This document shows, piece by piece, positions 8,574-52,041 of a stretch of DNA of 52,423 nt. The notes beneath the pieces are model-generated. The model searched no databases. It was not told where the DNA came from and saw nothing but the letters and a program-made list of their open reading frames with translations. Each line of letters begins with the position of its first letter. Position 1 is the first letter of the stretch. Position numbers and translations under genes: made by a program. Source of the DNA: a virus (lineage: Duplodnaviria; Caudoviricetes); IMG/VR virus record IMGVR_UViG_3300001918_000036, positions 1 through 52,423 of that record; one strand, 5' to 3'.

Positions 8574-8597
8574 GGCGTTATCCTCAAAACTGCCGTG

Positions 8598-8826: not shown

Positions 8827-9293
8827 GCCCCCAGAAATGTTGAAGGATTTACACGGCTAACTTTTCGGAAGCCTTGGAATTTACTGGCTTTTGGTGCAAC
8901 TTCGCCCACCCATTCCTTCAGCTTTACCGTCACTTCAGCGCTGAGTAGGTTGGCCTGGGCATCAGTTACCCGATACACCAGGGGCATGGATTCAAGAATC
9001 CAGTAGCCGTGGAACTTGCCTCCAATGGTGAGGGGGATAGCTTCCTGGGTATCCCCCATTTTGCGGATTAGCTCGATCTCTTCTGCCGGATTACTGAAGT
9101 TGACATGAAAGCGCCACACAATCTCCCAGGTTTTGAGTTTGCCACCGACCTGTTGTAACAAGGGTTTGCCTTGGATGCGCTCATGTTGCACGTAGTTCCA
9201 CTCTTCGGTGGGCGTCATCTTGATGGGCGATCGCAGCCCTTGATAGGTTTGAGTGCCGAGCTGGCAGAAATCCTCAGCATTGAATTTGCTCAC
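8823..9293 (-). CDS. Tail tube initiator, P2 gpU-like
   Basis: YVQHERIQGKPLLQQVG...G.WILES...LKEW; lies after the tape measure gene. Confidence 0.85.
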   Translation of the reverse strand: MSKFNAEDFCQLGTQTYQGLRSPIKMTPTEEWNYVQHERIQGKPLLQQVGGKLKTWEIVWRFHVNFSNPAEEIELIRKMGDTQEAIPLTIGGKFHGYWILESMPLVYRVTDAQANLLSAEVTVKLKEWVGEVAPKASKFQGFRKVSRVNPSTFLGA

Positions 9294-11650: not shown

Positions 11651-11655
11651 TACTG

Positions 11656-11812
11656 TTACTTCCCTTTACCCTTTGCAGCTTTCCAAAACTCTTCTACTTG
11701 CTCACACCAGTAGGCCACCTCATCGGCCTCCATCTCATCGATTTCTTTTAAACTCCAACCAGTCGTGTGAGCGAGAGCAATTATGCTTTGCCCGGTTGGG
11801 TATTTGATTCCC
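11656..11812 (-). CDS. GpE'-like segment of the tail assembly chaperone, reached by -1 frameshift
   Basis: The -1 frame reads GIKYPTGQSIIALAHTTGWSLKEIDEMEADEVAYWCEQ...*, a P2 GpE'-type motif with no start codon of its own; G5 run at 11810-11814. Confidence 0.7.
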
Positions 11813-12083
11813 CCTTGCTTCCCTGTACCTCCTGAGCCAGGGTATTAAAATCATCCAGGTCAAGATCCATTACGTCCTCAAAGGTGAGGAAGGTTCCGTC
11901 TACTTCCACCAGCAAGGAAACCAGATAGTACACAACATCTTCGGGATGCTTCGGCCCAGCTTGCCGCTGAGCGTTTCTCAGATCGCGAGTTTTCGCGGTG
12001 TGCAATACCCGAAAGGTTCGGCCATCGGACAGCTTGGGAAGGGTGGCGATCGCCTCGCTCTGAGTCTCATTCGCTTTGGTCAT
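11781..12083 (-). CDS. Tail assembly chaperone (P2 gpE/Mu gp41-like)
   Basis: Between tube and tape measure genes; EDVMDLDLDDFNTL motif. Confidence 0.85.
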   Translation of the reverse strand: MTKANETQSEAIATLPKLSDGRTFRVLHTAKTRDLRNAQRQAGPKHPEDVVYYLVSLLVEVDGTFLTFEDVMDLDLDDFNTLAQEVQGSKGESNTQPGKA

Positions 12084-32686: not shown

Positions 32687-33487
32687 TCACAACCCCAGAT
32701 AGTTGCTGCTGGAGTCGTCTGGAGAGGCTTCCAGGTATACGTTCGTCACCGCAATGCTGCTGTGGCCCAGAGTATCGCGCACCAACTGTAGAGGGGCACC
32801 CCCAGCTAGCGAGTGTTGGGCATGAGCGTGCCGGAGCCAGTGCGGAGATACGTTCTCACCCAATCCAGCACGTCTGGCCGCTGCCTTCACCACAGCCCAC
32901 AGCGTAAACCGTGTCAGTCCGAAAACTGGGGCCGTTTGGGGGCGATCGCCCCGCAACTGACGTACCAAACCCCACACCTGCTCTGGCAACAGTACCACCC
33001 GCGATTTGCCGCCCTTGCCCTGGAGTCGGCACTGCACCGCACCGCCGTCGCGTTCCTGAAGGTCAGCCCAGGTAAGGCTGCACACCTCAGAGGCTCTAGC
33101 ACCCGTGCCATACAGCAGGGCCAGCACTGCTTTATCCTGAGCTTCCGGCACGTCCAGTAGTGCTCGCACTTGGTCACGGCTGAGAATTCTCCCAGCCAGA
33201 TTCATCCGGCCTACTTTCAGCTTCACCGCAGCAGCCGGAGATTTGGGAAGTGCCCCCACCTCCACAGCAAAGGCCAGAAAGCTTTTCAGGGCTGCCAGCT
33301 TGTTGCGGCGCGTGGTGTGTTTTAGGTGGCCCAGGCTATCGCTCCACGCCTGGACATCCTCCAAGCTCACTTCCGCCAGAGGCTTTTTCACAAACTCTTT
33401 AAACTGCCGGATCGATAGGGCGTAGTTGTTCTGGGTGGTGGTTGGGCGATCGTGCAACCACTGCTCAATCAGTTTCTGCTCTTGCAT
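32687..33487 (-). CDS. Xer-like tyrosine recombinase/resolvase
   Basis: TGARASE, GKGGKSR, SPHWLRH, LGHSSI and VY catalytic residues; no arm-binding domain; GGAGG before ATG 33487. Confidence 0.93.
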   Translation of the reverse strand: MQEQKLIEQWLHDRPTTTQNNYALSIRQFKEFVKKPLAEVSLEDVQAWSDSLGHLKHTTRRNKLAALKSFLAFAVEVGALPKSPAAAVKLKVGRMNLAGRILSRDQVRALLDVPEAQDKAVLALLYGTGARASEVCSLTWADLQERDGGAVQCRLQGKGGKSRVVLLPEQVWGLVRQLRGDRPQTAPVFGLTRFTLWAVVKAAARRAGLGENVSPHWLRHAHAQHSLAGGAPLQLVRDTLGHSSIAVTNVYLEASPDDSSSNYLGL

Positions 33488-33513
33488 TTTCGGGTTCCTC
33501 CACTGATGGGGTT

Positions 33514-33541
33514 CCCGCACACAACTGGGGTTGTGTTGAAA
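33514..33541 (+). other. dif-like 11-6-11 recombination site
   Basis: CCCGCACACAA CTGGGG TTGTGTTGAAA versus E. coli dif GGTGCGCATAA TGTATA TTATGTTAAAT (arms match 6/11 and 8/11). Confidence 0.6.
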
Positions 33542-33620: not shown

Positions 33621-34508
33621 ATGGCTACGCTTGGATCAGCAATTTACGATCGGAAATTGCTGACTCGCTTCGCCTCACCTCACTACCCTGACGGTTCGCC
33701 GTTCCTGAAAATCCGTATGCCATCTATTCATGTCTGCGAGCGCGCCTGGGCGGAGGTCAGGCGTGTTAACCCAAAGCAGGCAAACCCAAAGCAGAAGACA
33801 GCAGAGCTTTTTGCCCTCTACCTGGAAACCCGTTCCACTCTTCTACGCAATCAAATCTCCCTTATCAACCAGGGCCTGGTGGTGGCGATCGCTGAGCGAT
33901 ATGCCGCCCATTGTTCGCTTCCCCTGGAAGATCTGATTCAGCTAGGCCACATCGGCCTGATCCGCGCCATTGAGAAGTTCGATCCCGCTGAGGGAGTTGC
34001 CTTTAGCAGTTTTGCGGTGCCCTATATCAAGGGTGAGATGCAACATTTTCAACGGGATAAGAAAAACCTGGCTAAGGTGCCCCGCCGCTGGCAGGAAACC
34101 AGCGATAGCGCCCGAATGCTGCAATCCAAGCTGGCCAAAGCTGGCCGCGCTGACCTGAGCCTGGATGAAGTTGCCCATAAGGGTCTAAATCTCCCCCCTG
34201 ATCAGTGGAAGGCCATTCATCAGGCAACACAAAGCCAGGTCTGGATCAGTCTGGACGAAGAGAACCACGATTTAGCGGCTACCCCTGGCCTATCCCTGGA
34301 AGCTCGCGAACAGATCGAAGCAATGCAGGATGCAGCCATTGCAGCCCTGGATTCTTTGCCAGAGTTGGAGCGGGCCTGTTTATTGGAGCGCTTCTGGGGA
34401 GAGTTGGGTGAAGACGTTATTGGGAAGCGACATCGCATCAGCACCGTTGAGGTGCAGCAGGCGATCGCCAGTGGTTTGCAACACTTACGGGAGATTGCCG
34501 CCGTATGA
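33621..34508 (+). CDS. Group 3 sigma-70 factor, SigB/SigF/SigJ-like
   Basis: LRNQI...NQGLV...EDLIQLGHIGLIRAIEKFDP..G.AFSSFAVPYIKGEMQHF.RD; start uncertain. Confidence 0.92.
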   Translation: MATLGSAIYDRKLLTRFASPHYPDGSPFLKIRMPSIHVCERAWAEVRRVNPKQANPKQKTAELFALYLETRSTLLRNQISLINQGLVVAIAERYAAHCSLPLEDLIQLGHIGLIRAIEKFDPAEGVAFSSFAVPYIKGEMQHFQRDKKNLAKVPRRWQETSDSARMLQSKLAKAGRADLSLDEVAHKGLNLPPDQWKAIHQATQSQVWISLDEENHDLAATPGLSLEAREQIEAMQDAAIAALDSLPELERACLLERFWGELGEDVIGKRHRISTVEVQQAIASGLQHLREIAAV

Positions 34509-36106: not shown

Positions 36107-36307
36107 TCACTTGAAGCTTTCAGGGTTATCTCTCACCCAGGCTATCGATTGCTCAATCGTGTAACTGAGAGCATTTGCCAGCACCGCCTGAATCTCAGGG
36201 TGCGGATTCTTACTCGCAATCTTGAGCAGGCATTGCGCCTGGTACTGCCGAAGATTGGCGATCGCCTCTGACTGGGTAATGCTGAGGGGATTCACAAGAT
36301 CACTCAT
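36107..36307 (-). CDS. Small hypothetical protein
   Basis: Overlaps the 3' end of the XRE gene. Confidence 0.55.
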   Translation of the reverse strand: MSDLVNPLSITQSEAIANLRQYQAQCLLKIASKNPHPEIQAVLANALSYTIEQSIAWVRDNPESFK

Positions 36308-36563
36308 TAAGCTGCACAAGCTCTGAAAGCGTGCAAACACCAAAATCTTCTTGACTCAAATCAGTAATAGCAACGCGAATCTCCTCGATCGCATCACCTC
36401 CAATCTCAGGAAGCGTATCCTGCGCTTTCAACCTGGCAATAGTCGTGGGATGCTTCCCCAGTCGCTCAGCCAAAGCCTTGTTTGTAATCTTCCTGCGGGC
36501 CATCGTTTCACGCAGAAGCCAGGATACCTTGCTCACTTCCGATGCACTTAAAACAGCATTCAT
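36300..36563 (-). CDS. XRE/Cro-C1-type HTH regulator
   Basis: WLLRETMARRKITNKALAERLGKHPTTIARLK. Confidence 0.85.
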   Translation of the reverse strand: MNAVLSASEVSKVSWLLRETMARRKITNKALAERLGKHPTTIARLKAQDTLPEIGGDAIEEIRVAITDLSQEDFGVCTLSELVQLNE

Positions 36564-36619
36564 CAGTATCTCCCGATAGCAACAATTTGCTACAAATATA
36601 GCTCCAAAAGCCTTTTATA

Positions 36620-36713
36620 TAGCGCTTAACGCAATCAGCATCGCTAATGGCGCAGCAGGTAACGATAAGATTTTTGAATGCGTTCAGCGCTATTTCGATA
36701 GCGTTCAGCGCTA
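36620..36713. promoter_or_regulatory. Three GCGTT(C/A)AGCGCTA operator-like boxes in the divergent promoter
   Basis: Inverted at 36620, direct at 36679 and 36700; TATACT at 36712. Confidence 0.65.
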
Positions 36714-36806
36714 TACTTTAGACACAAGAGAGGGCGATCGCCCAGTGCGTAGGAAACACAGCGATCGCCCTCTCCAAAACAAACCACCAAAGAGGTGATA
36801 AATCCG

Positions 36807-38452: not shown

Positions 38453-38500
38453 CAAAGCGAAGCCCCCAGCAGCCTATCGGTTGCTGGGGGCTTCGCTTTG
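38453..38500. terminator. Bidirectional intrinsic terminator
   Basis: CAAAGCGAAGCCCCCAGCAGCC...GGTTGCTGGGGGCTTCGCTTTG. Confidence 0.75.
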
Positions 38501-38507
38501 GGGTGGA

Positions 38508-38795
38508 TCACTCAGCCTCGTCGTCTTCAACGGCTCCAGTGAATCCAGACTTCTGCAATAGCTCTGCCTTCAGTTCGTCCACGCTGATTCCACGGTCAGA
38601 GGCCATCTCCGCAAGCATTTCCTCAATCAAGTCCTTGTTGTGCTCAATCCTGGCCTGGAGAGTGTTCTGGGCCAGTCCAGTTTTTGAGGTGCCCTTACAG
38701 GCCGCCCACCAGATCAGACGCTTCTCATGCCAGGGAGGCAACTTGATAGGAAACCGTTTTGCAGCCACTTCTGTACCTTCATCAATCCTCCCCAT
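38508..38795 (-). CDS. Ribbon-helix-helix-like regulator
   Basis: KRFPIKLPPWHEKRL..WA..KG.SKT.LA pattern; divergent from the membrane/ATPase operon. Confidence 0.6.
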   Translation of the reverse strand: MGRIDEGTEVAAKRFPIKLPPWHEKRLIWWAACKGTSKTGLAQNTLQARIEHNKDLIEEMLAEMASDRGISVDELKAELLQKSGFTGAVEDDEAE

Positions 38796-38903
38796 ATTGC
38801 CGTGAGCCTCCAGGTTTTTCTAGATGGTTCTAATCTAGCTACAAATAAGGCTACAAGGAAGTAGCTAAATCAGAATCACCCGTGCTATGCTCACCCTCAG
38901 AAA

Positions 38904-39077
38904 GTGACACGGAGATGACACGACAATGACAGCCGCCAAACCTATAGGATTTTCAAGGACTGCAAGAATTCGTGACTACCAAAACCGCCGCAACTACGGC
39001 AAAGGAAATGACAACGTGACACAAGAGAATGACAGCTTAGTGACAAAAATTCAGGCCGGTGACACCGAGAATGTCAC
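38904..39077 (+). repeat. RTGACA repeat array (8 direct, 1 inverted)
   Basis: Direct copies at 38904, 38915, 38926, 39008, 39016, 39029, 39040 and 39059; inverted at 39072. Confidence 0.7.
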
Positions 39078-39648
39078 CTTCCGCCAAATCGCTGAATGGC
39101 TCGACGAAAAATCCAACACGGTCAGTGCCCGCTACTTTCCAAAGGTCGTAATGGCACACGAAGGGCTGAAAGGCCACCCCAGCCTTCAATCGGCCCCCGG
39201 AAAACCCACCGGATACGCCGCCAAGTGCATCGCTGAGTACCTGGACATGAACAAAGACTTTGAGGGCTTTGTCACCGTCCTGAAAGGTAGATACAGCAAG
39301 CCTCTCGCTGCCGTCGATGGCGATGTTGTCATCGCTGAAGTGATGGACGATGACACGCTTCAGGTAAGTGGTGGGGGCGATCGCCGCGAGATTGCCGGGA
39401 AACTCGCTCTACGCAAGCAACAGAGCGAAGATGACACGGACGGAATGCTGGGGGAACTGGCGGTTACCGTCCAGCAGTTCAAGGAGCAGGACCAGGATTT
39501 TTTCGGAAGCGAAGACGAGCGGCTCTATCAGGAAGCGTACCAGCGCAAACTAGCCGAACTGGGAAAAGGGCTAAAGCGCAAGATGATCGAGCGCAAAGCC
39601 GAACTGGACGCAGAGAAAGCTTTCAAGGAGTTGATGGAGGAATCGTAA
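38926..39648 (+). CDS. Hypothetical protein (possible N-terminal HTH, C-terminal coiled coil)
   Basis: TFRQIAEWLDEKSNTVS segment; charged helical C-terminus. Confidence 0.65.
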   Translation: MTAAKPIGFSRTARIRDYQNRRNYGKGNDNVTQENDSLVTKIQAGDTENVTFRQIAEWLDEKSNTVSARYFPKVVMAHEGLKGHPSLQSAPGKPTGYAAKCIAEYLDMNKDFEGFVTVLKGRYSKPLAAVDGDVVIAEVMDDDTLQVSGGGDRREIAGKLALRKQQSEDDTDGMLGELAVTVQQFKEQDQDFFGSEDERLYQEAYQRKLAELGKGLKRKMIERKAELDAEKAFKELMEES

Positions 39649-39763
39649 TTCTCGCTTTGGTGCTGGCCTTCCTGGCCACCGCCATTTCCCTGGTGGGGCT
39701 GTTTGCCCTCATGCGTCAGCAAGCCCCACCTCCTGTAAACCCTACGCAAACGGAGAATCTTGG

Positions 39764-39958
39764 ATGACTACTAATGACTACGCTTGCCTGGCTGATTTTT
39801 CATGGCGCTGCTTCCGCACCTGGGATAGCTTCTACCGCCGTGCCAAAGATCCGCAGGATGCCCATCAGTTTCGCATACAGGCCCGTTACTTTCGCCGCTG
39901 TGCAATTCGGTGGGAGGCCCGATTGCTCAGATCTACCAATCAAGTCAAAGCCGCATGA
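39764..39958 (+). CDS. Small basic hypothetical protein
   Basis: GGAG RBS; ATGA-coupled. Confidence 0.5.
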   Translation: MTTNDYACLADFSWRCFRTWDSFYRRAKDPQDAHQFRIQARYFRRCAIRWEARLLRSTNQVKAA

Positions 39959-40092
39959 AAAGTCTATTCGACGATTTCTTTGCTGGGTTGGGATTGGCTC
40001 TAGCTGCCTACTTTTTCCTCAACGGCCTGGGCCTTTGGCCAGAGCCACCAAAGCCCTTCCCCCAGCAAACCCACCAAACTCCCAAAGGGTAA
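39955..40092 (+). CDS. Small single-TM protein
   Basis: MKSLFDDFFAGLGLALAAYFFLNGLGLW... Confidence 0.55.
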   Translation: MKSLFDDFFAGLGLALAAYFFLNGLGLWPEPPKPFPQQTHQTPKG

Positions 40093-40159
40093 GCGATCGC
40101 CCTAGTTTCTCAGGCCACGGCGATCGCCCCCTATCCCTTCTGCAAAGGACATTTAAACC

Positions 40160-40549
40160 ATGACACAAACAGCCACCAAAGACCTCACACTGCAAGAATT
40201 TCAGCAGGATATGGGAGCCGAGCGAATCACCGACAGCTCGCACCTGATGCCCGTCGCCAACTTCACCGATTGCAAACAGGCCGCTGCCCTGGTGGAGAAG
40301 TTTGGCGATAAGGATTTGGCAAAGCTCTCCGACATTGACCAGGCCGCATTGCTCTGTATCCTCTCTGCCATCGTCTACCGGGATGTATGCACCACTGGCA
40401 AGCAGCCGCTCACTATCTGGGAAGCCGCCGATCGCGCCATTCCTGAGGATGAGGATCACACCTCAGAGGCAATGGAAGACGCTCTGGAGGCGCTCGAAGG
40501 CATTGACCCGGATGATGCGATCGCCCTGATTCAGTTTTTGGTGCAGTGA
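40160..40549 (+). CDS. Acidic hypothetical protein
   Basis: AAGGA RBS. Confidence 0.65.
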   Translation: MTQTATKDLTLQEFQQDMGAERITDSSHLMPVANFTDCKQAAALVEKFGDKDLAKLSDIDQAALLCILSAIVYRDVCTTGKQPLTIWEAADRAIPEDEDHTSEAMEDALEALEGIDPDDAIALIQFLVQ

Positions 40550-40550
40550 T

Positions 40551-41057
40551 ATGGATCAGCTTTTCAATCCTCTTACTTCGCCTGGAACGACGATTTTGCT
40601 AGGGCTGAGTGCCGTAGCCGGGGGCGTATCTCTTTCGATGGTGCGATTGGAAACGGCAATGGCAGAACGAACCCACACGCAGATAGCGCTGCAACGTGCT
40701 GAGGTCTGCCGGATTTTGCCCCCCACTGAGAAGTTGGAGCTGGGAGCCTACTACTTCCAGCCCACTACCTTCAATCCAGACGGAGGCCGTAGCGGCGTCC
40801 TTTTGGAGGAAGGGCGTTACGTGTGCGATCGCTTTGGTGCTACCGCCCGCATTGAGCGCGGTGGGTACGCGCAATTCATGGCGATCGCTGCGGATATCAC
40901 CGCATTCAATAGGGTGCTTCAGATACGCCTGGACGATCCGGCTAATCCGGATGCCAACCAGGAAACTCAGGTGCAACGCGCCCACAACATGGGGGTCTGG
41001 AAAGAACCCCCGCAGGCTACCGAGCCTGAAAAGCCCGATTTCTTTGATGTTCAATAA
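40551..41057 (+). CDS. Single-TM protein with a putative extracytoplasmic domain
   Basis: TILLGLSAVAGGVSL; two Cys residues. Confidence 0.65.
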   Translation: MDQLFNPLTSPGTTILLGLSAVAGGVSLSMVRLETAMAERTHTQIALQRAEVCRILPPTEKLELGAYYFQPTTFNPDGGRSGVLLEEGRYVCDRFGATARIERGGYAQFMAIAADITAFNRVLQIRLDDPANPDANQETQVQRAHNMGVWKEPPQATEPEKPDFFDVQ

Positions 41058-41071
41058 ACGGAGAATTAACT

Positions 41072-41782
41072 ATGGCAGTTCGTAGAAAGCCCAAGCCTCA
41101 AGCCGCCAAGCCTGAAGCCCCACCCTCAGCCGATCCCTTTGCCAGTGAGGAGAAGGAGGATCAAGGCATCATCCTGAAGCTTGCCAAGCTTATGCAAGAC
41201 ATCTTCAGTCACAAGGGGATGTTTTGGTTGGGTGTGTCGGTTGCAGTTGTCTGCTTCTTAGGGAACCTCTGGTTTTACTACAGCCTCTTTGGGGAGTTAA
41301 CCGAATATGCAATCTGGCAGTGTGCAGGGCTAGCCCTGCTCGTATCATGCTCAACCACCTTGTTTGAGCTAATGCCAGTCATCATGACCCAGGGGCGGCG
41401 AAACCGACTTCGCCAAATTCTTCACGCTGGGGCCAAGCCTCGGGATCTTCCAGAACTGAATCCAAAGGTCGTAGGCGATGCCGAGGATCTAATGAAGGCA
41501 TACCGGAACAGCGACAAAGAAACCAAAGAGTTTTTCGAGATGGGCCGATGGATCGCCATCTTCCTCGAAGCCATAGTGGGCTTCATCTTCATGGGATCTT
41601 TAGGGTCCGGTTTCGGTGCCCTCATCAGCTTGGGCCTATTCATCGCCTCGATCTTTGGGTGCGAGTGGGGAGTTTCGCTTGCTCTCCGGGCCGCTGAATG
41701 GGAGTTGCCCCCGGCTATTCGCCAACAACTCGATGAACTCCTTGCCAATGCTGGCAAAGCCCTGAATTTGAAGCGCATCTAA
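41072..41782 (+). CDS. Integral membrane protein (about 4 TM segments)
   Basis: Two hydrophobic hairpins; GGAG RBS. Confidence 0.75.
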   Translation: MAVRRKPKPQAAKPEAPPSADPFASEEKEDQGIILKLAKLMQDIFSHKGMFWLGVSVAVVCFLGNLWFYYSLFGELTEYAIWQCAGLALLVSCSTTLFELMPVIMTQGRRNRLRQILHAGAKPRDLPELNPKVVGDAEDLMKAYRNSDKETKEFFEMGRWIAIFLEAIVGFIFMGSLGSGFGALISLGLFIASIFGCEWGVSLALRAAEWELPPAIRQQLDELLANAGKALNLKRI

Positions 41783-41799
41783 CCCTCAAATAGCTACGA

Positions 41800-41829
41800 A
41801 AAAGGCGTGAGGGGCAACTCACGCCTTTT
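41800..41829. terminator. Hairpin/terminator upstream of the ATPase gene
   Basis: AAAAGGCGTGAG GGGCAA CTCACGCCTTTT. Confidence 0.55.
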
Positions 41830-41856
41830 ATTTGCCCATTACCACAGGAACTTAGT

Positions 41857-43785
41857 ATGAGCATTCGTCGTAATCGTAACCGCGATCGCCAGAATGAAGC
41901 CGTAGCAGAGCCACTCATTCAACCCACCACACCCCCGCCCCGGATCGAGCGCCGCAAGCCTAATGAACGGAATGGCTACCTCGATCCAGACCAAACCCTG
42001 GTGAACTTCGCCATTCGCGAAAAAGGGATGACCTTTGAACAACTCATCGCAGAAGACCCCAGCCGCTTACTCCGAACCTGGCTGAAGCTCTACAGAAAAG
42101 CCAGGGCGACGGCGATCGCCACCGCAGTACTGGGCGCTGCTGCGACGGTGGTGGGGGTGGGAGTTGGGGCCACACCGCTGATGGTCGCCGGAATCGCCAC
42201 CATCGGCGGGTCTGGAATGCTGGCAAAGCACCACAACGCTGGGGTGAAGGCGTGCGAGCTGGAAGCCGAGATTTTAGACGAAATCCGGCCCATCCTGGAA
42301 CTGTTTCACACACTGGAAACCCGTGGGGCAAACCCCTCCGACCTGGTAAGCCTGTACGACAGATTGATCCGTCAGTACGCTGCACAAAACCCCGTATTCG
42401 GGGCCATCGGGGATCCCGCTGGGCTGAAAGAATTCTTCGAGGTGGAGCTAGCCAAGCACCTCACCGTTTCGAGCGTTGCAGCCACCCAGACAGGGTTTGC
42501 TGCTGCTGCCAAACCTCAGCCACCAGCGATCGCCCCCGCAGCTCCACCACCTGTCCAACCTCCCTCGCCTTCTGTTGCACCAGTGATTCATGGGCAGCCA
42601 GAAGCACCCATCGCCCAATCTGCCCATGAATCATCGACTGAAATTCAGGTTGCGACCGAAATTCAGACCGTGGAAGCGGAGGTGGAGGTGGAGGTGCCCA
42701 CCACTGACCTGGCAGGTGTATTGGCAGAGCAGTTGAAGTCTCTGGTGATTGCGGCTTTCCCACGCACTGGCAAAGGCATCACCGTAGCCCACGGAGGCCG
42801 CAGAGTGAAGGAGATGTACCCCGACCTGGAGATCTGGCTACTTGACCCAAAGAATGAGGCGAGTGAAAGCGGCTACTGGTCGTTCGTTGACCTGGATAAA
42901 AGGATTCATTTCGACCTAAGGGATTTCTGCTTGGACATTCCGAAGACCGAAACCCTGGTCAATGACTTCCTGACTCGGTTCAACAATTCGACCGCAGTGG
43001 CCAAGCTCCTGATTGTGGACGAATTCGTGGCCTTGAATGCTCGACTCTCCAGTGAGTTCATGAAACGCCTAAAAGATTTTCTGGTGGCCATTTCCTCTTC
43101 TGGGGAATCCAGCTCGGGTGACGCAAGCCAGAAGCCTCAAGGCAAGTTTGCCTGGGTAATCACTCAATCCCCCTACGTTGCAGATCTGGGCTTCCGCACC
43201 AAAGGACAGCGAGCGGCCTTCAACCGAATTCTGCTATTCAATGACACCAATCAGGGCTATCTAACACTGGCTGAAGGGGCTGATTTTTGCCCAAAGATTA
43301 GAGACGAAGAAAAGCAGAAATTGTTGTCTTCAACAGGCCGCGCTTTCTACTACTCACTGGGCGATCGCTGGGGTGCAATTTGCAACTACCAAGGATTTGC
43401 GCCGGATGCTAGGACTTCACCCAATTCGCACCCGTTCAGCGCTCAACCCGTGGTCAACCAGCAAGCAACTGAAGCTGAGGTAGAAGTAGCCACAGAGGAA
43501 GTAGCAACAGCGGTTTTTGATACAGAAGAAATCGCTGCAAAACTCCTCAACTGGCTTAAAGGCAGAGGGCAAGAGTTTTTCACGGATGGATTCATTTCTG
43601 GCCCTGTTATTGTCAAAAACTTTGGGTACTGGAACAAGGGTAAAACTTATAGGGTTTCCAAGCCAGAACTCACCCAGCTTGTAATGCATTTAGTTCATAT
43701 CAAAGAAGTGGAAGTTGTCGCAGGGAAAGGAGTAAGACTGCTCTCATTTGAGGATGAGTTGGGCCTGTTCGATGATGTGGCGTAA
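41857..43785 (+). CDS. Membrane-anchored FtsK/HerA/TraB-superfamily P-loop ATPase
   Basis: TM hairpin; Pro-rich linker; Walker A AFPRTGKG; WLLDPK; Walker B LLIVDEF; VITQS; small C-terminal wHTH-sized domain. Confidence 0.72.
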   Translation: MSIRRNRNRDRQNEAVAEPLIQPTTPPPRIERRKPNERNGYLDPDQTLVNFAIREKGMTFEQLIAEDPSRLLRTWLKLYRKARATAIATAVLGAAATVVGVGVGATPLMVAGIATIGGSGMLAKHHNAGVKACELEAEILDEIRPILELFHTLETRGANPSDLVSLYDRLIRQYAAQNPVFGAIGDPAGLKEFFEVELAKHLTVSSVAATQTGFAAAAKPQPPAIAPAAPPPVQPPSPSVAPVIHGQPEAPIAQSAHESSTEIQVATEIQTVEAEVEVEVPTTDLAGVLAEQLKSLVIAAFPRTGKGITVAHGGRRVKEMYPDLEIWLLDPKNEASESGYWSFVDLDKRIHFDLRDFCLDIPKTETLVNDFLTRFNNSTAVAKLLIVDEFVALNARLSSEFMKRLKDFLVAISSSGESSSGDASQKPQGKFAWVITQSPYVADLGFRTKGQRAAFNRILLFNDTNQGYLTLAEGADFCPKIRDEEKQKLLSSTGRAFYYSLGDRWGAICNYQGFAPDARTSPNSHPFSAQPVVNQQATEAEVEVATEEVATAVFDTEEIAAKLLNWLKGRGQEFFTDGFISGPVIVKNFGYWNKGKTYRVSKPELTQLVMHLVHIKEVEVVAGKGVRLLSFEDELGLFDDVA

Positions 43786-43934
43786 TGGCGTAAGGAAGGT
43801 GCTGTTTTCCGGCGTAAGGTGGCGTAAGGCCAGCGTAAGGGAGCCTGTAAGGCCCATTCTTCCGTTCACTGGCGTAAGGATTGTAAGGCCAGTGTAAGGA
43901 TTGTAAGGCCAGCGTAAGGGATGTCATTACGCCA
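43779..43934 (+). repeat. Phased array of ten (N)3GTAAGG repeats directly after the ATPase stop
   Basis: Copies at 43787, 43811, 43821, 43832, 43844, 43871, 43880, 43891, 43900 and 43911; flanked by GGCGTAAT and an inverted ATTACGCC. Confidence 0.9.
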
Positions 43935-44049
43935 CCATCACGCCCAAGAATCTATTAGTTAATCCAGGAATTCAGGCTGAGAAAAATGAACAAACCTAAG
44001 CCATTCAGGCAAAGCTACAATCGAAGCAGAGATGATACACCCTGAAGAC

Positions 44050-44081
44050 AAAAGCCCCCAGCTCTACACCGGGGGCTTTTT
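44050..44081. terminator. Bidirectional intrinsic terminator
   Basis: AAAAGCCCCC...GGGGGCTTTTT. Confidence 0.75.
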
Positions 44082-44119
44082 CATTATTTAGCTTGAGAGA
44101 GATCGCTCCTTTTGCGGTA

Positions 44120-48531: not shown

Positions 48532-51500
48532 ATGACCTACACCGGATCGCAGGAGATTAGACAGGAAGCATCTTCCTCAGTTCCCTGTCCTCTTTGCGAA
48601 CGTGATCATTACTGCTACCTGTTCCTGGATGTGCAGGGGCAGGTTTTTAAGAGCATTTGTCAGTGGACCGACCACCCACCCGAGGGTTGGGATAGGGTGG
48701 GTACCGCCAAGGATAACCGTGGCATTTTCTGCCGACAGGGCTACAACCGTAGCCAGCGGCGCACATTCCCTGATTACCTCACTTTGAGTCCTCGCGACTT
48801 TGGGGATATTCCCCAGTGGCAACCGACTGACCCTGGCGATCGCCCCATTATTGCGGGTGACTTGGTTCTCTTCCACTCCGGAGTTCCGGAGGGTGTCTGG
48901 GTGGTAGTGAAAACTCGCGGGGGTAAACACCAGGGGCAGCACCAAATCCTGGTCACAGTTCGCCGCCCTGATACCCATCACGGTGGCATGGAGGTACCAG
49001 AGTCGGATTTGGCGATCGCCACCACTGATCCAACCACTGGGGCCGTTGAGCACTTCATTGAGTACCACTACCACGGAGCAGATCTGCTGCCACTGGGAAA
49101 AGTCGTGCGTACCCAGTGGACTGACCGACGGCGGGCATATGAAAAATTCCGCAAGTCAAAGCAGATTCGCCCCTATCACTGGCTTGGCTCCCAGGCTGAA
49201 GGCTTCTGGAGTTCTGGAAAGGGCGATCGACCTTGGCCCCTGTACCGTGAAATTGAGGCCAAAGATGAAATCCTCAGAGGTGGAGTCGTGTTCGCCGTCG
49301 CGGGTGAACAGGCTGTGGAAACATACCGTGCTATGGGGCTGGTTGCAACCTCCTGCCAGGGTGGCGAATCGAACTTTAAGGACTTCATTGAGCGACTAGA
49401 AGCTGTATTCCAGGAAGCTAAGGGCTTACAACTCAAGCCCGTTTTGGTAATTCACCCCGACCACGACCTTACGGGTGAAACCAAGTTTGCGGAGTTACTG
49501 AAGGAATGCGAATTCAAGAAGATTCCAGCGGTGATGCTCGAACCGCTGGATCTCTGGAATGAGCTTCCCCCTGGGGGCGACATCTGGGATGTCGTCAATC
49601 GCAGCGGCATGAATACCGCCACGATCTTGCAACGGCTCGAAGGTGCGGTGGATGAAGCCATTGATAGGCAGGAAGGCGAGATATTCGCCCGCCAACAGCG
49701 TGAGCGCTGGCAGGCCCCTGAAGTCTACCGGGGGGAGTTGGGCTACTGGCGTGAGGATAAAGAGACTGGGAAGCGGTACTTTCGACCCCAGGCTGATTTT
49801 GATTTTCAGGTGGAGCGCGAGCTGATTTCTGAAGACGGCGGTGGGTTGGTGCTCCAAATCAAACGCACCGACGATTCCAGCCAGCGCCGGGTTTACATCA
49901 AATCCGCAGAGTATAGCTCCACTCAGCTTTTCACCAACGCCCTGAAACGAAGCCTGGGTGGTGGTGTGGTGTGCAACCTATCCAGCGATCGCCTGCAAGC
50001 CCTCATCCGTGTGCGGCTGCACGAATACCGCACCACACGCAGGGGCAAAGCTTATCGACTCATCGACCGCATCGGCCAGCAACCAGACGGTTGCTGGGTT
50101 TTTGAGCACATCCAATTCACCAAACACGGTGAGTCAACTAATGAAGATAGGAGTTTGTGGGTGTTTAATCCAGAAATCACGGGCAACAATGCCCATTTCA
50201 AACCACCAGCTATCCCACCGCATGACCCAGGAGCATTGCCCAAACTCGTTGCTGCAATGCAACGGGCCTTCGGCTCCAACTTTGCCCCGGCCATGCTGAC
50301 GTTGGGCTATGCCGCCGCCGCCTGCCACTATCAGGAGATTCAGGAGAAAGAGGGAGCCTTCCCCATCCTGAACCTGTACGGTGACCCAGGGAGCGGCAAA
50401 ACCACCGCTGCTGAATGTGCCCTTTCCCTGGTGGGCCAGCACAAGGAAGGCATGATGGTCGAGGTTTCAGTTTCAGCCGCCTACGAGCGACTGAAACTTG
50501 CTGGGGGCCTGCTGCACTGCCTGGATGACCCAAAGCGTGATGAGCTGCTGGATGAGTTCCTGAAGGGCTTCTACAACGCCAAAGCCAGGGTGGTCAGGGG
50601 CAAAGATGCCGCTGGTTTCAACACTCAGAAACCACATAGCCCCCTAATGGTGACTTCAAACCATGCGTGTGGGGAGAACAGCGCGGCCACCCAGAGCCGC
50701 CTGGTTCGTCTTTTCTTCCCCAAGACAACTGACGGCGATGGCTCCGCATTTCGGGAGCTGCCACGACTTCAGGAAGAGGCCAGCGCCTGCTTCACTGACC
50801 TGGTGAAACTGGGCTATCCAGCAGAGGCCATCTACGAGCTGGAACAAGAAATTGCAGAGCATGTCCCCAATGCCCACTTAAGGATCGCCAAATCCCTGGC
50901 TTTGGTACTTTGCTATGCCATGCGGGTTGCAGCTCTGGCTGGAATCGACGGTCAAATCCTGAAGGACTACGTGATGAACGTAGTCGCCGCCCAGGTGAAC
51001 GACCCTGATGAATCTGGGGATTCGCTGAGAGACTTCCTGGAGAAGGTATTCACCCTGGAGTCCGAGGCCAAAATTGGTGAGTGGAATTTCCGGTGGGTGG
51101 AAAAGAAGGATGGCGATCGCGCCCTCACCATCTACATGCCTGGTGTATGGGCGGCTCTTGATAAGAATTTCAAGGTTTCCTACAACAAGCGCATCATTGA
51201 AGCCCTGCTGCAATCGAAGGGACTGAGCAAGACACGGGGCAACTTCGACAGTGACGAGGATCAATCCCGGCACTACAAACGGATGAAGCTCACCATGAAT
51301 GAGGAGAGCTTAGCCGACTGCAAGCCAGAGCGAACCACCCGATGGTGCTACGAACTTCCTGCTTCCCTCCTGAAGGAGTACAGCGAAAAGTCTGGAAGCT
51401 CACAAAAAAGATCATCAAGATCATCAGCCGATTTTGAAGAGCCTCAAGGCATTGATACGCCTAGCGAGGAGGTTGATGATCTAAAAGATCATCAGAGATC

Positions 51501-52041
51501 ATCAGAGATCATCAAGGCCCCCACGCCTGAAAATGCCGCCCAGGGGTCTGATGATCTTTTTGCCCCCGTGATGACATCTGATGATCTCATAGATCATCAA
51601 CCTCAACCCCAAGCAGAGCATGGGGTTGATGCCTCTCAAAAGGACGTGATGATCTTGATGATCTCAAATACGCCTACCCCCCAACCTAGCTTTACAACCG
51701 TTAACAATCCCTCAGCAAGCTCCGGAACTCCGGAGGCGATCGCCACAGAGATCGCCCCTGGTGACTTCGTTGTGATTTCAGCCAGTGGAAGTTGGATTAA
51801 GGCCGGGAGCGATCGCATCGAATGGAACGACATTCCCCACGGCTTCCGTGACCGGGAAACGAAGGAAGTACCCCTGAGCCGCTTCGAGGATATGGAGTTG
51901 CTGCAAGAACTGACAGACCGCTCGCTGGTGATTGGCATCTCTGAGGATGGCAAGCGGGTGAGGGTTCGTAACTGCACCACGAACCGAATCAGCGTGTTTG
52001 GGCGAGGGTTTGTCCACCTAATCAAGAAAGGAGGCTCCTGA
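48532..52041 (+). CDS. Primase-helicase (Zn finger, TOPRIM-like, DUF927-like/P-loop NTPase)
   Basis: CPLCERDHYC; AGEQAV...PDHD; GGDIWD; YGDPGSGKT; LDD; VTSN. Confidence 0.85.
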   Translation: MTYTGSQEIRQEASSSVPCPLCERDHYCYLFLDVQGQVFKSICQWTDHPPEGWDRVGTAKDNRGIFCRQGYNRSQRRTFPDYLTLSPRDFGDIPQWQPTDPGDRPIIAGDLVLFHSGVPEGVWVVVKTRGGKHQGQHQILVTVRRPDTHHGGMEVPESDLAIATTDPTTGAVEHFIEYHYHGADLLPLGKVVRTQWTDRRRAYEKFRKSKQIRPYHWLGSQAEGFWSSGKGDRPWPLYREIEAKDEILRGGVVFAVAGEQAVETYRAMGLVATSCQGGESNFKDFIERLEAVFQEAKGLQLKPVLVIHPDHDLTGETKFAELLKECEFKKIPAVMLEPLDLWNELPPGGDIWDVVNRSGMNTATILQRLEGAVDEAIDRQEGEIFARQQRERWQAPEVYRGELGYWREDKETGKRYFRPQADFDFQVERELISEDGGGLVLQIKRTDDSSQRRVYIKSAEYSSTQLFTNALKRSLGGGVVCNLSSDRLQALIRVRLHEYRTTRRGKAYRLIDRIGQQPDGCWVFEHIQFTKHGESTNEDRSLWVFNPEITGNNAHFKPPAIPPHDPGALPKLVAAMQRAFGSNFAPAMLTLGYAAAACHYQEIQEKEGAFPILNLYGDPGSGKTTAAECALSLVGQHKEGMMVEVSVSAAYERLKLAGGLLHCLDDPKRDELLDEFLKGFYNAKARVVRGKDAAGFNTQKPHSPLMVTSNHACGENSAATQSRLVRLFFPKTTDGDGSAFRELPRLQEEASACFTDLVKLGYPAEAIYELEQEIAEHVPNAHLRIAKSLALVLCYAMRVAALAGIDGQILKDYVMNVVAAQVNDPDESGDSLRDFLEKVFTLESEAKIGEWNFRWVEKKDGDRALTIYMPGVWAALDKNFKVSYNKRIIEALLQSKGLSKTRGNFDSDEDQSRHYKRMKLTMNEESLADCKPERTTRWCYELPASLLKEYSEKSGSSQKRSSRSSADFEEPQGIDTPSEEVDDLKDHQRSSEIIKAPTPENAAQGSDDLFAPVMTSDDLIDHQPQPQAEHGVDASQKDVMILMISNTPTPQPSFTTVNNPSASSGTPEAIATEIAPGDFVVISASGSWIKAGSDRIEWNDIPHGFRDRETKEVPLSRFEDMELLQELTDRSLVIGISEDGKRVRVRNCTTNRISVFGRGFVHLIKKGGS
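51409..51707. repeat. AGATCATCA/TGATGATCT iteron array with overall dyad symmetry; putative replication origin
   Basis: About 11 nonamers inside the low-complexity 3' part of the primase gene. Confidence 0.75.

Follow-up and report, generated by a model that had tools for sequence, protein, structure and literature searches.

A putative TraB/clt-like DNA translocation module on cyanobacterial mobile elements

The unit at positions 38508–44085 of the window (the whole 52,423-nt stretch of viral DNA analysed here) belongs to an undescribed type of module carried by cyanobacterial mobile elements and composed of a small divergent regulator, a single-pass protein of ~150 aa, a multi-pass protein of ~240 aa and a membrane-anchored ATPase. 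Established in this description are the fold class and domain architecture, a gene order that is conserved, the repeat arrays and the co-variation of array motif and ATPase C-terminus. Our preferred reading, to which we give slightly less than an even chance, is that the unit may be a relaxase-independent dsDNA translocation module resembling the TraB, clt and Spd system. Its outcome would be intercellular DNA transfer, and the module hints at virus-particle-free transfer of DNA in cyanobacteria.

Layout and boundaries of the unit

The unit runs from a divergent small regulator through small and multi-pass membrane proteins to a 642-aa protein, repeats and a terminator-like hairpin (Table 1), confirming as a whole what an earlier note had observed from the letters of this DNA (layout, membrane proteins, 642-aa protein and array). 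That note had also called the unit terminator-bounded, which is partly shown: the right hairpin with its T-run was scored in the terminator scan, but the left hairpin (inverted repeat I8, 95% complementary, 4-nt loop) was unscored because it has no clear T-run. Short repeats suggest a candidate promoter and operator region between the divergent genes, where the promoter/terminator scan scored no promoter. As for the divergent small repressor, the divergent 95-aa ORF stands, and the repressor label, that of a candidate, comes from a ribbon-helix-helix (RHH)-like pattern judged by eye and a weak RelB-like antitoxin match (E 0.0056, below the cut-off); the protein had no Pfam match. In the homologous locus L003, a divergent 56B_RHH protein occupies the same relative place, with no BLASTP similarity to the 95-aa protein.

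Table 1. Features of the unit and its boundaries in the window
Feature	Positions	Strand	Description
Hairpin, 22-nt arms	38453..38500		Left boundary; separates the regulator gene from the 186-aa gene upstream
95-aa small regulator candidate	38508..38795	-	Divergent ORF, ribbon-helix-helix-like
Divergent intergenic region	38796..38925		Short direct and inverted repeats: CTAGA...TCTAG; GCTACAA x2
240-aa soluble acidic protein	38926..39648	+	First gene of the plus-strand operon; without membrane segment or family
Two overlapping small candidate ORFs	39764..40092	+	64 aa at 39764-39958; 60 aa at 39910-40092
129-aa acidic soluble protein	40160..40549	+	ORF
168-aa protein	40551..41057	+	One N-terminal membrane segment (Kyte-Doolittle); conserved module component
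236-aa protein	41072..41782	+	~4 membrane segments (Kyte-Doolittle); immediately upstream of the ATPase
642-aa membrane-anchored FtsK/HerA-like putative ATPase	41857..43785	+	ORF, AF2 model and family comparison
YGTAAGG array	43779..43935	+	10 repeats; in addition a degenerate copy that overlaps the stop codon and an inverted half-copy; candidate clt-like cis site
Right boundary	44052..44085	+	Terminator-like; GC-rich hairpin (stem 44060-44077), then T-run TTTTCATTAT; scored in the terminator scan

Membrane segments, called by a crude Kyte-Doolittle scan, were found in the 60-aa candidate ORF (one segment) and in the 168-aa, 236-aa and 642-aa proteins, in agreement with the several small and multi-pass membrane proteins described earlier. 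Iterated HMM searches recovered an equivalent of the 168-aa protein, which has three close homologues, as an ORF of 136–170 aa that lies two genes before the ATPase gene in L002, L003, L004, L006, L010 (pCC7120alpha) and L011, and no homologue of the 240-aa protein in the other loci. None of the 30 homologues of the 236-aa protein has a Pfam domain, and in 16 of 18 loci the ATPase gene directly follows a gene for a multi-pass membrane protein; profile comparison linked the 236-aa protein weakly to one of two membrane-protein families (hhalign probability 56%, E 1.2e-4) and not to the other.

Six-frame searches of the window for relaxase, VirB4 and coupling-protein (T4CP) families gave 0 matches at E<=0.01 to each of PF03432, PF01076, PF03135 and PF02534, as expected from the earlier remark that relaxase and type IV secretion (T4SS) genes are absent. 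Elsewhere the window encodes a XerD-like recombinase and a 1188-aa SF3-helicase/prim-pol replication protein, and within this primase-like gene lies a second iteron-like array (AGATCATC x11), a better replication-origin candidate than the array at the ATPase gene.

Architecture and predicted fold of the ATPase

The 642-aa protein has, in order, a basic N-terminus, a TM hairpin (~86-124), a helical domain, a Pro-rich linker (203-276) that is disordered in the AF2 model, a P-loop domain (~280-527), an acidic linker and a winged helix (556-628). Although the hydropathy scan scored one peak (86-104), the model places a long helical hairpin there (H68-103 and H106-155), so that the layout first noticed by eye is reproduced by the AF2 model together with Walker A (AFPRTGKG, 300-307) and Walker B (LLIVDEF, 384-390). 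K306, D388 and E389 are invariant across 19 homologues, and the protein would form a ring and hydrolyse ATP.

An FtsK/HerA fold and a winged helix in the last ~75 aa had been suggested as checks, and both were borne out in the models. The best structural matches of the ATPase domain (280-520) were STIV B204 (Z 13.5), TrwK/VirB4 (13.0), the FtsK motor (13.0), EssC (12.9) and TcpA (12.6), with Rho nearly tying in fold score with the FtsK/HerA motors (Z ~12.3). The top Foldseek match was the E. coli FtsK motor (E 5.3e-5), and ESM Atlas features and structure led to FtsK_SpoIIIE/DUF87 clusters. For the C-terminal domain, modelled at pLDDT 80, the best 50 PDB matches were mostly winged-helix proteins (Vps25, Z-alpha, RPA32C, IclR, MarR, ScpA/B and ORC) at Z 7.2-8.7, the upper value being modestly above the level often reached by models without a clear match. 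The models thus predict an FtsK/HerA-type fold in the ATPase domain and a winged helix at the C-terminus. PF01580 gave no match in the protein at E<=0.1, a profile search of PDB sequences returned nothing relevant and, judged by sequence, it is not a member of TraB or FtsK.

The protein belongs to an unnamed family of 462 cluster representatives, for which Pfam, PHROG, NCBIfam and PADLOC hold no model. At least one hydrophobic segment precedes the P-loop in 144 of 155 family proteins, and PF01580 reached a sub-threshold match in 2 of the 110 members scanned. The ending of Walker A in GKG had been raised as a warning about ATPase activity, a concern that we set aside: [AG]xxxxGKG occurs in 140 of the 155 proteins, making it a family hallmark, and it matches the TraG/VirD4 coupling-protein motif APTRSGKG, reported in the ATP-hydrolysing TraK (PMC2831815; also PMC13381706), so GKG is no sign of a dead ATPase.

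Repeat arrays and their co-variation with the C-terminal domain

Immediately after the ATPase gene, as the earlier note had seen, 10 plus-strand copies of YGTAAGG lie within 131 bp (43789-43919), grouped into two clusters at 9-12-bp spacing; the inverted half-copy is GCGTAA at 43927. The 52-kb window as a whole holds 16 matches (chance expectation 7.9), the six outside the array being on mixed strands, and none of 200 shuffles gave as many as 10 copies when 6-mer clusters were tested. The winged helix would be the candidate binding domain for this array, in the manner of clt.

Arrays occupy the same place in homologues, and their motif follows the C-terminal domain, two points that the note had proposed to check. 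Among 23 unique homologous loci, 14 (the window and 13 further) have 6-8-bp repeats packed densely at the 3' end of the ATPase gene, either inside it or directly beyond it, at -370 to +190 nt from its stop codon, the observed count being reached in 0 of 200 shuffles; an array is absent in seven, including pCC7120alpha, and two are borderline. The array is the densest cluster of its locus in 11 of 12 loci tested (in L028, all 14 CCCGACA copies of the 12.8-kb locus fall within it), and in seven loci it sits in the part of the gene that encodes the linker.

The array motif varies by lineage and tracks a swappable C-terminal domain rather than the motor. L006 and L003 are similar over the rest of the protein (score 974) but have unrelated C-termini (25) and the motifs CCGGAAG and CTGAAAC, and L018 and L017 differ likewise (919 against 36; CGATACC and ACCCTAC). 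Conversely, L018 is unrelated to L002, L003, L004 and L011 over the rest of the protein (34-47) whilst the C-termini are related (95-157) and the motifs share 4-5 of 7 bases. Mantel correlation with the motif was 0.58 for the C-terminus (0/5000 permutations) and 0.40 for the rest of the protein, values that are not independent tests, since related loci have inherited both arrays and domains from common ancestors.

Distribution of the module

Above all, this is a module of plasmids and integrative elements, and the cyanophage setting holds for this window only. Searches of 50,697 phage records and of IMG/VR contigs returned no homologue, and no phage structural gene lay within ~8 kb in the five Pfam-scanned loci from genome contigs (L002-L006). 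The earlier placement in a cyanophage is therefore correct for the window, but the homologous loci are plasmids and elements with integrase and primase genes near the ATPase gene. The named records of the family are cyanobacterial, and 22-23 cyanobacterial plasmids carry it, including ones of 13, 17, 24 and 39 kb. The window itself has a full virion module, with its own terminase, portal and capsid genes; a prophage so equipped would not obviously need a second exit, and the module may therefore be a passenger of a plasmid-like backbone. Two homologous loci come from a MAG of Waterburya, a non-filamentous genus, a point against the preferred reading.

Proposed working and alternative readings

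In the preferred, TraB-like reading, an ATPase oligomer, probably a hexamer, would load through its C-terminal winged helices on the repeat array of the element's dsDNA. The TM hairpin would hold the motor at the cytoplasmic membrane, where the upstream membrane proteins would cooperate, and the motor would pump unprocessed dsDNA from the cell, either through a septum into a neighbour or towards a recipient, without a relaxase. TraB, clt and the Spd proteins work in this way in Streptomyces, where the system, with TraR, is described from plasmids and AICEs such as pSVH1 (PMC4447253, PMC3429521, PMC5365140). The module likewise combines a membrane-associated FtsK-like motor with a putative C-terminal DNA-recognition domain, and a candidate cis site of short (~8-bp) repeats particular to the cognate protein, just as clt is a set of 8-bp direct repeats to which the cognate TraB binds (PMC4447253). 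It also shares small membrane proteins encoded in the motor's operon, a 4-TM partner among them, a divergent small regulator, the lack of a relaxase and carriage on plasmids and integrase-bearing elements. The 236-aa protein is the positional counterpart of SpdB2, which forms pores, has four TM segments and occurs in homologous form on actinophages (PMC4447253). In contrast to TraB, homologues of which are, according to PMC3548315, reported only in Actinobacteria, the module ATPase has no detectable sequence homology and a Walker A of coupling-protein type. Its regulator looks RHH-like rather than GntR-like, its membrane partners are unrelated in sequence to Spd proteins, its array, unlike clt, can lie within the linker coding sequence, and its hosts are diderm. 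The TraB/clt-like interpretation offered earlier is partly supported: it came through every computational test named for it favourably, but without sequence-level homology to TraB or FtsK.

The FtsK/SpoIIIE gamma winged helix reads a short DNA motif (KOPS/SRS), and these translocases share with the module protein a membrane anchor, a long disordered linker, a RecA-like motor (FtsK motor structures being among its best matches) and a winged helix. The unit could thus be a private segregation pump, tethered at the membrane or septum and reading the array as FtsK reads KOPS, which would clear or deliver element copies into daughters at division, possibly with a Xer-like recombinase resolving dimers, and with no intercellular transfer. 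The XerD-like recombinase in the window, relatives of which (41-43% identity) are found in L003 and L008 no further than ~3-4 kb from the ATPase gene, fits this, and activation of XerD by the gamma domain of FtsK provides a precedent (PMC3130261). We nevertheless consider it unlikely. The motif is clustered beside the gene (10 of 16 window copies in 131 bp, the other six mixed-strand), not dispersed and polar like KOPS, and carriers already have ParA or ParB systems (L007, L008, L011) or an actin-like ALP_N gene (L005). A conserved multi-pass membrane partner and an M23 peptidoglycan peptidase within the same gene run of a Leptolyngbya BL0902 plasmid (L009) would be unexpected for purely cytoplasmic segregation. 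Unlike FtsK/SpoIIIE, the module protein has no PF01580 match, a compact motor (~250 aa) and two TM helices rather than more, and its gene sits on mobile elements and is not a housekeeping gene.

Distinctly less probable is a minimal type IV coupling protein that would supply a conjugation channel with a nucleoprotein substrate, or serve a relaxase encoded elsewhere or unrecognisable, with the array in an oriT-like region. To our knowledge, coupling proteins lack a sequence-specific C-terminal domain with cognate repeats, which the module protein putatively adds. TraG/VirD4 proteins and TcpA of pCW3 do share its N-terminal hairpin of two TM helices and cytoplasmic P-loop domain, TcpA and TrwK/VirB4 match its motor (Z 12.6-13.0), and its Walker A (A-x-x-R-x-G-K-G) resembles APTRSGKG (PMC2831815, PMC13381706). 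MOB-suite typing (via PLSDB) classed 14 of 22 carrier plasmids as conjugative or mobilizable, but eight as non-mobilizable, small ones included. PF02534, relaxase and VirB4 families are without matches in the window, and sub-threshold Pfam matches of the family were to FtsK_SpoIIIE, DUF87 and AAA families, never T4SS-DNA_transf.

A membrane-tethered replication initiator or origin anchor, whose winged helix would bind the array as an iteron origin whilst the ATPase remodels or loads replication factors, is very unlikely: iteron-like arrays beside a winged-helix ATPase gene recall initiators, and Orc1/Cdc6 chains were among the Foldseek matches (though at rmsd 18-20), but the elements have separate replication proteins (the 1188-aa protein of the window, with the second array inside its gene; CyRepA1 in L009; D5_N/DUF5906 in L002), the motor fold is nearest translocases and not AAA+ initiators, and membrane anchoring and the multi-pass partner are conserved. 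Equally improbable is some other membrane ATPase role, be it genome packaging in a membrane-containing virus-like element, the array serving as pac, for which STIV B204 as best single structural match and the runs of small membrane proteins also found in membrane-containing viruses would speak, or superinfection exclusion or defence that expels or blocks incoming DNA; the window already encodes a terminase, a portal and capsid proteins, Pfam scans of the module and of L002-L006 turned up no capsid protein, no PADLOC defence family matched, and a cis site matching the element's own protein argues for action on self DNA.

Against the preferred reading of intercellular transfer stands the outer membrane of cyanobacteria, the M23 peptidase of one plasmid being the only envelope-crossing component identified. 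Diderm use of such a DNA pump may have a model in TdtA, the transjugation donor ATPase of Thermus thermophilus, a relaxase-independent, membrane-bound hexameric FtsK/HerA-type protein on a mobile element that pushes DNA from a diderm donor, after which the recipient's competence system takes it up (PMC5365140). Compared by description, TdtA has no reported cognate repeats or winged-helix tail; it is HerA-like and has a NurA nuclease and a restriction enzyme as partners.

A predicted membrane-anchored motor of the FtsK/HerA superfamily

The 642-aa ATPase of the module consists, in order, of a basic N-terminus, a helical hairpin, a Pro-rich linker, an alpha/beta domain, an acidic linker and a small C-terminal domain. 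Based on the structure model (mean pLDDT 68, mostly 80-90 in the ATPase domain) and hydropathy, the transmembrane hairpin is formed by helices at residues 68-155 with a hydrophobic stretch at ~86-124 (scored peak 86-104), followed by a Pro-rich segment modelled as disordered (203-276), the alpha/beta domain (~280-527) and the small domain (556-628). A word-seeded search recovered 21 relatives, and an exhaustive profile search extended these to 462 cluster representatives at E<=0.001, with 305 at E<=1e-10. Curated resources were largely uninformative for this family: PF01580 (FtsK_SpoIIIE) gave no match to the 642-aa protein at E<=0.1, a profile search of PDB sequences returned one irrelevant match (E 0.98), and a Pfam scan of 110 family members yielded sub-threshold matches to FtsK_SpoIIIE (PF01580) in 2, DUF87 in 1 and generic AAA families in several.

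Structural comparison recovered the FtsK/HerA fold that the earlier note had proposed, with the motor (residues 280-520) aligning over 174-211 residues to the FtsK motor (VIA Z 13.0) and to B204 (13.5), and with Rho within ~1 Z. The matches comprised the STIV B204 packaging ATPase (4kfs, Z 13.5), TrwK/VirB4 (8rtd, Z 13.0), the FtsK motor (6t8b, Z 13.0), EssC (4lya, Z 12.9), the coupling protein TcpA (6o1w, Z 12.6) and several Rho chains (Z about 12.3). The E. coli FtsK motor was also the top Foldseek match (E 5.3e-5), and the ESM Atlas, by sequence features as well as by structure, pointed to FtsK_SpoIIIE/DUF87 clusters, the nearest unnamed clusters being mostly cyanobacterial. From the modelled fold, we conclude that the ATPase domain is an FtsK/HerA-superfamily motor from a lineage that lacks a curated model.

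The Walker A motif of the protein reads AFPRTGKG (300-307), and the absence of a serine or threonine after the lysine had raised the concern of a dead enzyme. This concern is not borne out, as a glycine follows the lysine, and hydrophobic residues follow in turn, in 140 of the 155 family proteins with a locatable P-loop, making GKG a conserved hallmark of the family. Across the 19 closest homologues, A299, A300, P302, R303, G305, K306 and G307 of Walker A were invariant, as were D388 and E389 (Walker B, KLLIVDEF) and T436-Q437-S438-P439. TraG/VirD4 coupling proteins carry the motif APTRSGKG according to excerpts from PMC2831815 and PMC13381706, the latter describing it together with two N-terminal transmembrane helices. 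The 642-aa protein shares with them the GKG, the arginine two residues ahead of the conserved glycine, and the two N-terminal transmembrane helices, but PF02534 matched neither the 642-aa protein, nor the window in six frames, nor any of the 110 family members, and the likeness in Walker A is therefore one of resemblance rather than membership.

The C-terminal domain (residues 541-642), modelled alone with three close homologues, was predicted to adopt a helix/helix/hairpin/helix/wing arrangement (pLDDT 80). When compared with 48,161 PDB representatives, winged-helix domains dominated the best 50 matches at moderate Z (7.2-8.7, over 57-86 residues), among them Vps25, Z-alpha, RPA32C, IclR, MarR, ScpA, ScpB, ORC/Cdc6 and cullin WHB, in agreement with the winged helix suspected earlier within the last ~75 aa. 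Foldseek with the same model returned nothing at E<=0.001. The modelled domain is thus likely, rather than proven, to be a winged helix. Among the homologues, P0002 (Leptolyngbya sp. FACHB-16), P0003 and P0004 have the window's C-terminal domain, at 43-62% identity.

Repeat arrays co-vary with the C-terminal domain

The densest cluster of 6-mers or 7-mers, counted on both strands within 200 bp, was sought in the interval -500 to +350 around each ATPase stop codon in 23 non-redundant loci (the window, 5 species-representative genomes, 5 plasmids, 10 loci from genome searches and 2 from metagenomes), with 200 shuffles and the rest of the same locus as controls. Clusters of GCGATCGC, which we take to be the cyanobacterial HIP1 element, were left out of the counts and were the sole clusters in L010 (plasmid pCC7120alpha) and L031. 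In 12 loci, 6-14 copies were found that 0/200 shuffles reached, and in 11 of these the array was the densest cluster of the entire locus, the window array tying with a second array, of AGATCATC. Two further loci qualified, L011 with 10 of the locus's 35 RGTTCA within 250 bp and L030 with 7 copies that in part make up a simple GGCA tandem. Hence, on a check named in the earlier note, homologues do carry arrays near the ATPase 3' end, in 14 of 23 loci. Arrays in L024 (1/200 shuffles) and L017 (3/200 shuffles) were borderline, and L007, L009, L010, L021, L025, L026 and L031 (7 of the 23) had none near the stop codon. Within the window as a whole, YGTAAGG occurred 16 times against 7.9 expected, and two imperfect copies edge its array, a degenerate one across the stop codon and, at the far end, an inverted half-copy.

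Repeat arrays at ATPase genes in 12 loci where no shuffle reached the observed count
Locus	Motif	Copies
Window	YGTAAGG	10
L018	CGATACC	14
L028	CCCGACA	13
L002	CCGAAAC	13
L006	CCGGAAGT	11
L029	CCGGAAGT	11
L008	CGCCACA	10
L023	TGCTACA	9
L003	CTGAAAC	8
L005	CATCTA	7
L004	TGAAAC	6
L027	GCACAC	6

Eight or nine arrays lie beyond the stop codon; those of the window, L028, L005, L023, L008, L027 and L030 begin after or at it, and those of L002, L003, L004, L006, L029, L018 and L011 lie within the linker coding sequence ahead of the C-terminal domain (-367 to -60). That the arrays are a mere by-product of repetitive linker peptides was considered and set aside, since some arrays lie outside genes and those in coding sequence include inverted copies, which indicates that the DNA itself is conserved, and not solely a repetitive peptide.

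Pairwise comparison of 16 loci by the last 85 residues of the ATPase (tail), the rest of the protein (body) and the array motif revealed that the motif tracks the tail, a co-variation that the earlier note had asked to check, with the discordant pairs being the informative part. Loci with similar bodies and unrelated tails had different motifs: L006 and L003 (body 974, tail 25; CCGGAAG vs CTGAAAC), L018 and L017 (919, 36; CGATACC vs ACCCTAC) and L027 and L011 (920, 39; AGCACAC vs CTGAACC). Conversely, L018 compared with L002, L003, L004 and L011 had body values of 34-47 and tail values of 95-157, and motifs with 4-5 of 7 bases in common, and within each of the pairs L006/L029 and L003/L004, tail type and motif were both shared. 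Mantel correlations, inflated by common descent, were 0.58 for tail against motif (0/5000 permutations) and 0.40 for body against motif (1/5000). We accordingly regard the repeat array as a candidate clt-like site specific for the tail of its cognate ATPase.

In the homologues P0012 and P0021, and in those at L018 1444-3438 and L017 1471-3330, the N-terminal and/or C-terminal domains are kept around a different-looking ATPase core, with a GKS Walker A in P0012, P0021 and L017. L017 and L018 retain the C-terminal and/or N-terminal domain plus an array (borderline in L017). These variant cores point to domain shuffling inside the ATPase family. P0005, P0006 and P0007, in turn, combine almost identical motors with three different C-termini.

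Membrane partners and limits of the module

All elements described in the earlier note (regulator, membrane proteins, ATPase and array) were present in the window, and its statement that relaxase and T4SS genes are missing held in a six-frame search of the window, where PF03432, PF01076, PF03135 and PF02534 (relaxase, VirB4 and T4CP families) gave 0 matches. The description of the unit as terminator-bounded was upheld on the right, where a terminator-like hairpin is followed by a T-run, but only in part on the left, where the hairpin is strong and has no clear T-run. One hydrophobic segment each was predicted in a 60-aa ORF and the 168-aa protein, and ~4 in the 236-aa protein. No useful family was assigned to the module proteins in Pfam, PADLOC or NCBIfam, PHROGs gave weak matches to families of unknown function, and BLASTP detected no similarity between the 95-aa regulator and the RHH protein of L003.

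In 16 of the 18 loci with enough upstream sequence, a membrane protein with several segments was encoded immediately ahead of the ATPase gene or separated from it by a single ORF. This partner measured 200-290 aa in 15 of the 16, the L027 copy being cut by the locus start, and in most cases had a 135-170-aa protein encoded ahead of it; by iterated HMM, the family of the window's 168-aa protein was recovered in L002, L003, L004, L006, L010 and L011. At least two sequence families are represented among the multi-pass proteins. For the 236-aa protein of the window, 30 homologues were found, together with a weak profile link to one multi-pass family (probability 56%, E 1.2e-4) and none to the other, membrane-protein family A, for which hhalign gave a probability of 1%; the ESM Atlas offered no informative cluster (best score 0.84). 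P0012 and the 236-aa homologue P0186 seemingly derive from one source, which suggests, short of proof, that the N-terminal domain and the membrane partner move as a pair.

The module is carried by plasmids of filamentous cyanobacteria

Three family queries (tblastn) each retrieved the same 22-23 of 72,556 plasmids, exclusively cyanobacterial records, from Nostoc, Tolypothrix, Aulosira, Trichormus, Microchaete, Calothrix, Scytonema, Fischerella and Leptolyngbya. All nine genera are filamentous. Plasmids of Gloeothece, Synechocystis and Chondrocystis gave no ATPase match, though they are in the collection, as evident from their matches to the window's replication protein. The carriers include plasmids of 13, 17, 24 and 39 kb, and a homologous triad, WP_010999622 to WP_010999624, is encoded on pCC7120alpha of Nostoc sp. 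PCC 7120. The ATPase family is sparse: it turned up in 5 of the 401 genomes sampled across the phylum and 5 of 301 of the order (3 of these already known), a scan of genome contigs returned 5 loci, none with the window's C-terminal type, and a metagenome scan returned 2. Two loci came from one MAG of Waterburya, a non-filamentous genus.

The module had been presented as a feature of a cyanophage, a description that holds for the window only. Searches of viral sequence gave no further case: the 642-aa protein had no tblastn match in 50,697 phage records, and of 24 pattern matches in the IMG/VR contig scan, 0 were confirmed. Pfam recognised no phage structural genes in L002-L006. Neighbouring genes encoded ParA or ParB, a Xer-like integrase (41-43% identity to that of the window), CyRepA1 or D5_N/DUF5906 replication proteins, and ALP_N. 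On a Leptolyngbya BL0902 plasmid (L009), an M23 metallopeptidase acting on peptidoglycan (10868-12064) ends a same-strand run with the ATPase homologue, beside a CyRepA1-family gene; a hydrolase of the cell wall would be in keeping with an apparatus that crosses the envelope.

In the Symplocastrum locus (L005), an actin-like ALP_N gene heads the operon, and the ATPase is divided over two overlapping frames, an N-terminal membrane part of 258 aa (7183-7959) and an ATPase part of 356 aa (7929-8999), representing either a natural split or a frameshift.

Layout of the provirus

The IMG/VR record is classed as a provirus of 52,423 bp with a CheckV completeness of 75%. The named relatives of its proteins belong to Leptolyngbya, Oculatella and Microcoleus, and the GCGATCGC octamer recurs in its repeat tables. 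The virion module encodes small and large terminases, a portal-like protein, Mu F, major capsid, lysozyme, sheath, tube, tape measure and baseplate proteins, the large terminase sharing 47.7% identity with its counterpart in Leptolyngbya phage Lbo-JY16. From 33.6 kb onwards, the plus strand carries the SigF-like sigma factor, small regulators, the module and a 1188-aa replication protein, which joins an SF3-helicase/DUF5906 part to a primase-polymerase part and has relatives on cyanobacterial plasmids.

Features of the provirus and of the module
Feature	Position	Strand	Remarks
Contractile-tail virion module	1-31.8 kb	minus
AGATCATC x3	3694-3765		baseplate region
XerD-like tyrosine recombinase gene	32687-33520	minus	mid-provirus, away from both ends
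SigF/SigB-type sigma factor	33621-34508	plus	start of plus-strand arm; Sigma70_r2 and r4; NF005644 E 1.5e-51, under curated cut-off
Small HTH-type regulator gene	36300-36563	minus
Inverted and tandem repeats	36594-36718		44-nt imperfect inverted repeat (73% complementary); tandem 21-nt repeats
Left hairpin	38453-38500
95-aa regulator	38508-38795	minus
168-aa protein	40551-41057	plus
236-aa multi-pass protein	41072-41782	plus
642-aa ATPase	41857-43785	plus
YGTAAGG array, 10 copies	43789-43919	plus	all on one strand, mostly 9-12 bp apart
Right hairpin	~44060-44085
AGATCATC x11	51409-51664	both	within 3' part of 1188-aa SF3-helicase/prim-pol gene
Truncated HNH endonuclease gene	window's end

The second, iteron-like array brings AGATCATC to 14 copies in the window against 1.7 expected, and is probably a replication origin, or sites for the C-terminal part of the replication protein. 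Repeats between the small HTH-type regulator gene and the early plus-strand genes are likely to form the operator region of a lysogeny switch. A tRNA scan of the window returned none, hence no clue to an att site, and Rfam reported no family in the window at gathering score. The right arm has a plasmid-like look because the neighbours and carriers of the module are plasmids and integrative elements rather than virion loci, and it may represent a plasmid-like or integrative backbone that either has been joined to the virion module or simply borders it. The provirus may be a single phage, a phage-plasmid or a pair of neighbouring elements.

A putative dsDNA translocation system

As the same combination of parts is found on Streptomyces plasmids and AICEs, we read the module, by analogy, as a TraB/clt/Spd-like dsDNA translocation module, a reading that we regard as nearly, if not quite, an even proposition. 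The likeness lies in a membrane-anchored FtsK/HerA motor with a swappable sequence-reading tail and matching repeats at the end of its own gene, in conserved membrane partners, a divergent small regulator and the lack of relaxase or T4SS genes in the window, and in residence on mobile elements with their own replication and partition genes; the 642-aa protein differs in that no sequence homology to TraB/FtsK (PF01580) was detected. As described in excerpts from PMC4447253, PMC3429521 and PMC5365140, the C-terminus of Streptomyces TraB binds 8-bp clt repeats, and the protein forms a hexameric channel that pumps unprocessed dsDNA, with Spd proteins, including the four-TM pore-former SpdB2, aiding mycelial spread and SpdB2 homologues occurring on actinophages. 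To pass the diderm envelope of cyanobacteria, DNA might cross the septa inside a filament, where presumably only cytoplasmic membranes and septal peptidoglycan separate the cells. Alternatively, the donor might export DNA for uptake by the competence system of the recipient, as described for TdtA of Thermus in part of PMC5365140.

Among other explanations, it is unlikely that the ATPase is a private segregation pump, possibly working with a Xer-like recombinase; relatives of the window's recombinase (41-43% identity) were located ~3-4 kb or less from the ATPase modules of L003 (12416-13054) and L008, a 24-kb Fischerella plasmid (9083-10009). A role as a minimal coupling protein, serving a channel or relaxase that has escaped recognition, would accord with its Walker A motif, but the relaxase and VirB4-type T4SS partners of coupling proteins were not found in the window and 8 of 22 carrier plasmids were typed as non-mobilizable, and we consider this role improbable. 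A membrane-tethered replication initiator seems very improbable, given that the AGATCATC array in the replication gene is a better origin candidate. A packaging or exclusion role, to which the best structural match (STIV B204) lends some weight, is highly doubtful, as the window itself encodes a terminase, a portal and a capsid, and Pfam, which a divergent capsid protein might escape, detected capsid families neither in the module nor in L002-L006.

Extending the TraB/clt/Spd-like reading, we tentatively propose, while considering it more apt to fail than to hold, that cyanobacteria, mostly filamentous, possess an independently evolved, relaxase-free dsDNA conjugation or spreading pump, which at least one temperate phage would use without virions, as would plasmids and integrative elements. 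At its core would stand an FtsK/HerA pump resembling coupling proteins, with interchangeable heads that read DNA and with arrays to match, and the genomes of these elements would move from cell to cell, along or between filaments. The PMC3548315 survey of conjugation ATPases places TraB homologues in Actinobacteria only, assigns the cyanobacterial type to a VirB4-based class, and holds dsDNA conjugation by a single FtsK-like pump to be peculiar to mycelial Actinobacteria. Our literature text search (supplements aside) found no description of TraB/FtsK-like transfer in cyanobacteria. The working principle is known; the protein family, the coupling-protein-like P-loop, the modular heads with in-gene arrays and the host phylum would be new.

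If true, this would be the first such system beyond Actinobacteria and the first instance of a prophage able to spread by a further route that needs no particles. A cyanobacterial module with an equivalent function but unrelated sequences would mean that multicellular bacteria have arrived at dsDNA pumping repeatedly. The system would also supply a mechanism for the spread of plasmids and prophages in cyanobacterial mats and blooms, and could account for the movement or persistence of large Nostoc and Tolypothrix plasmids. Natural matched pairs of head and motif, spanning at least 10 motifs, could be used for studying or engineering DNA recognition. With a homologous triad on pCC7120alpha, the question is directly testable in the genetically tractable Nostoc sp. 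PCC 7120.
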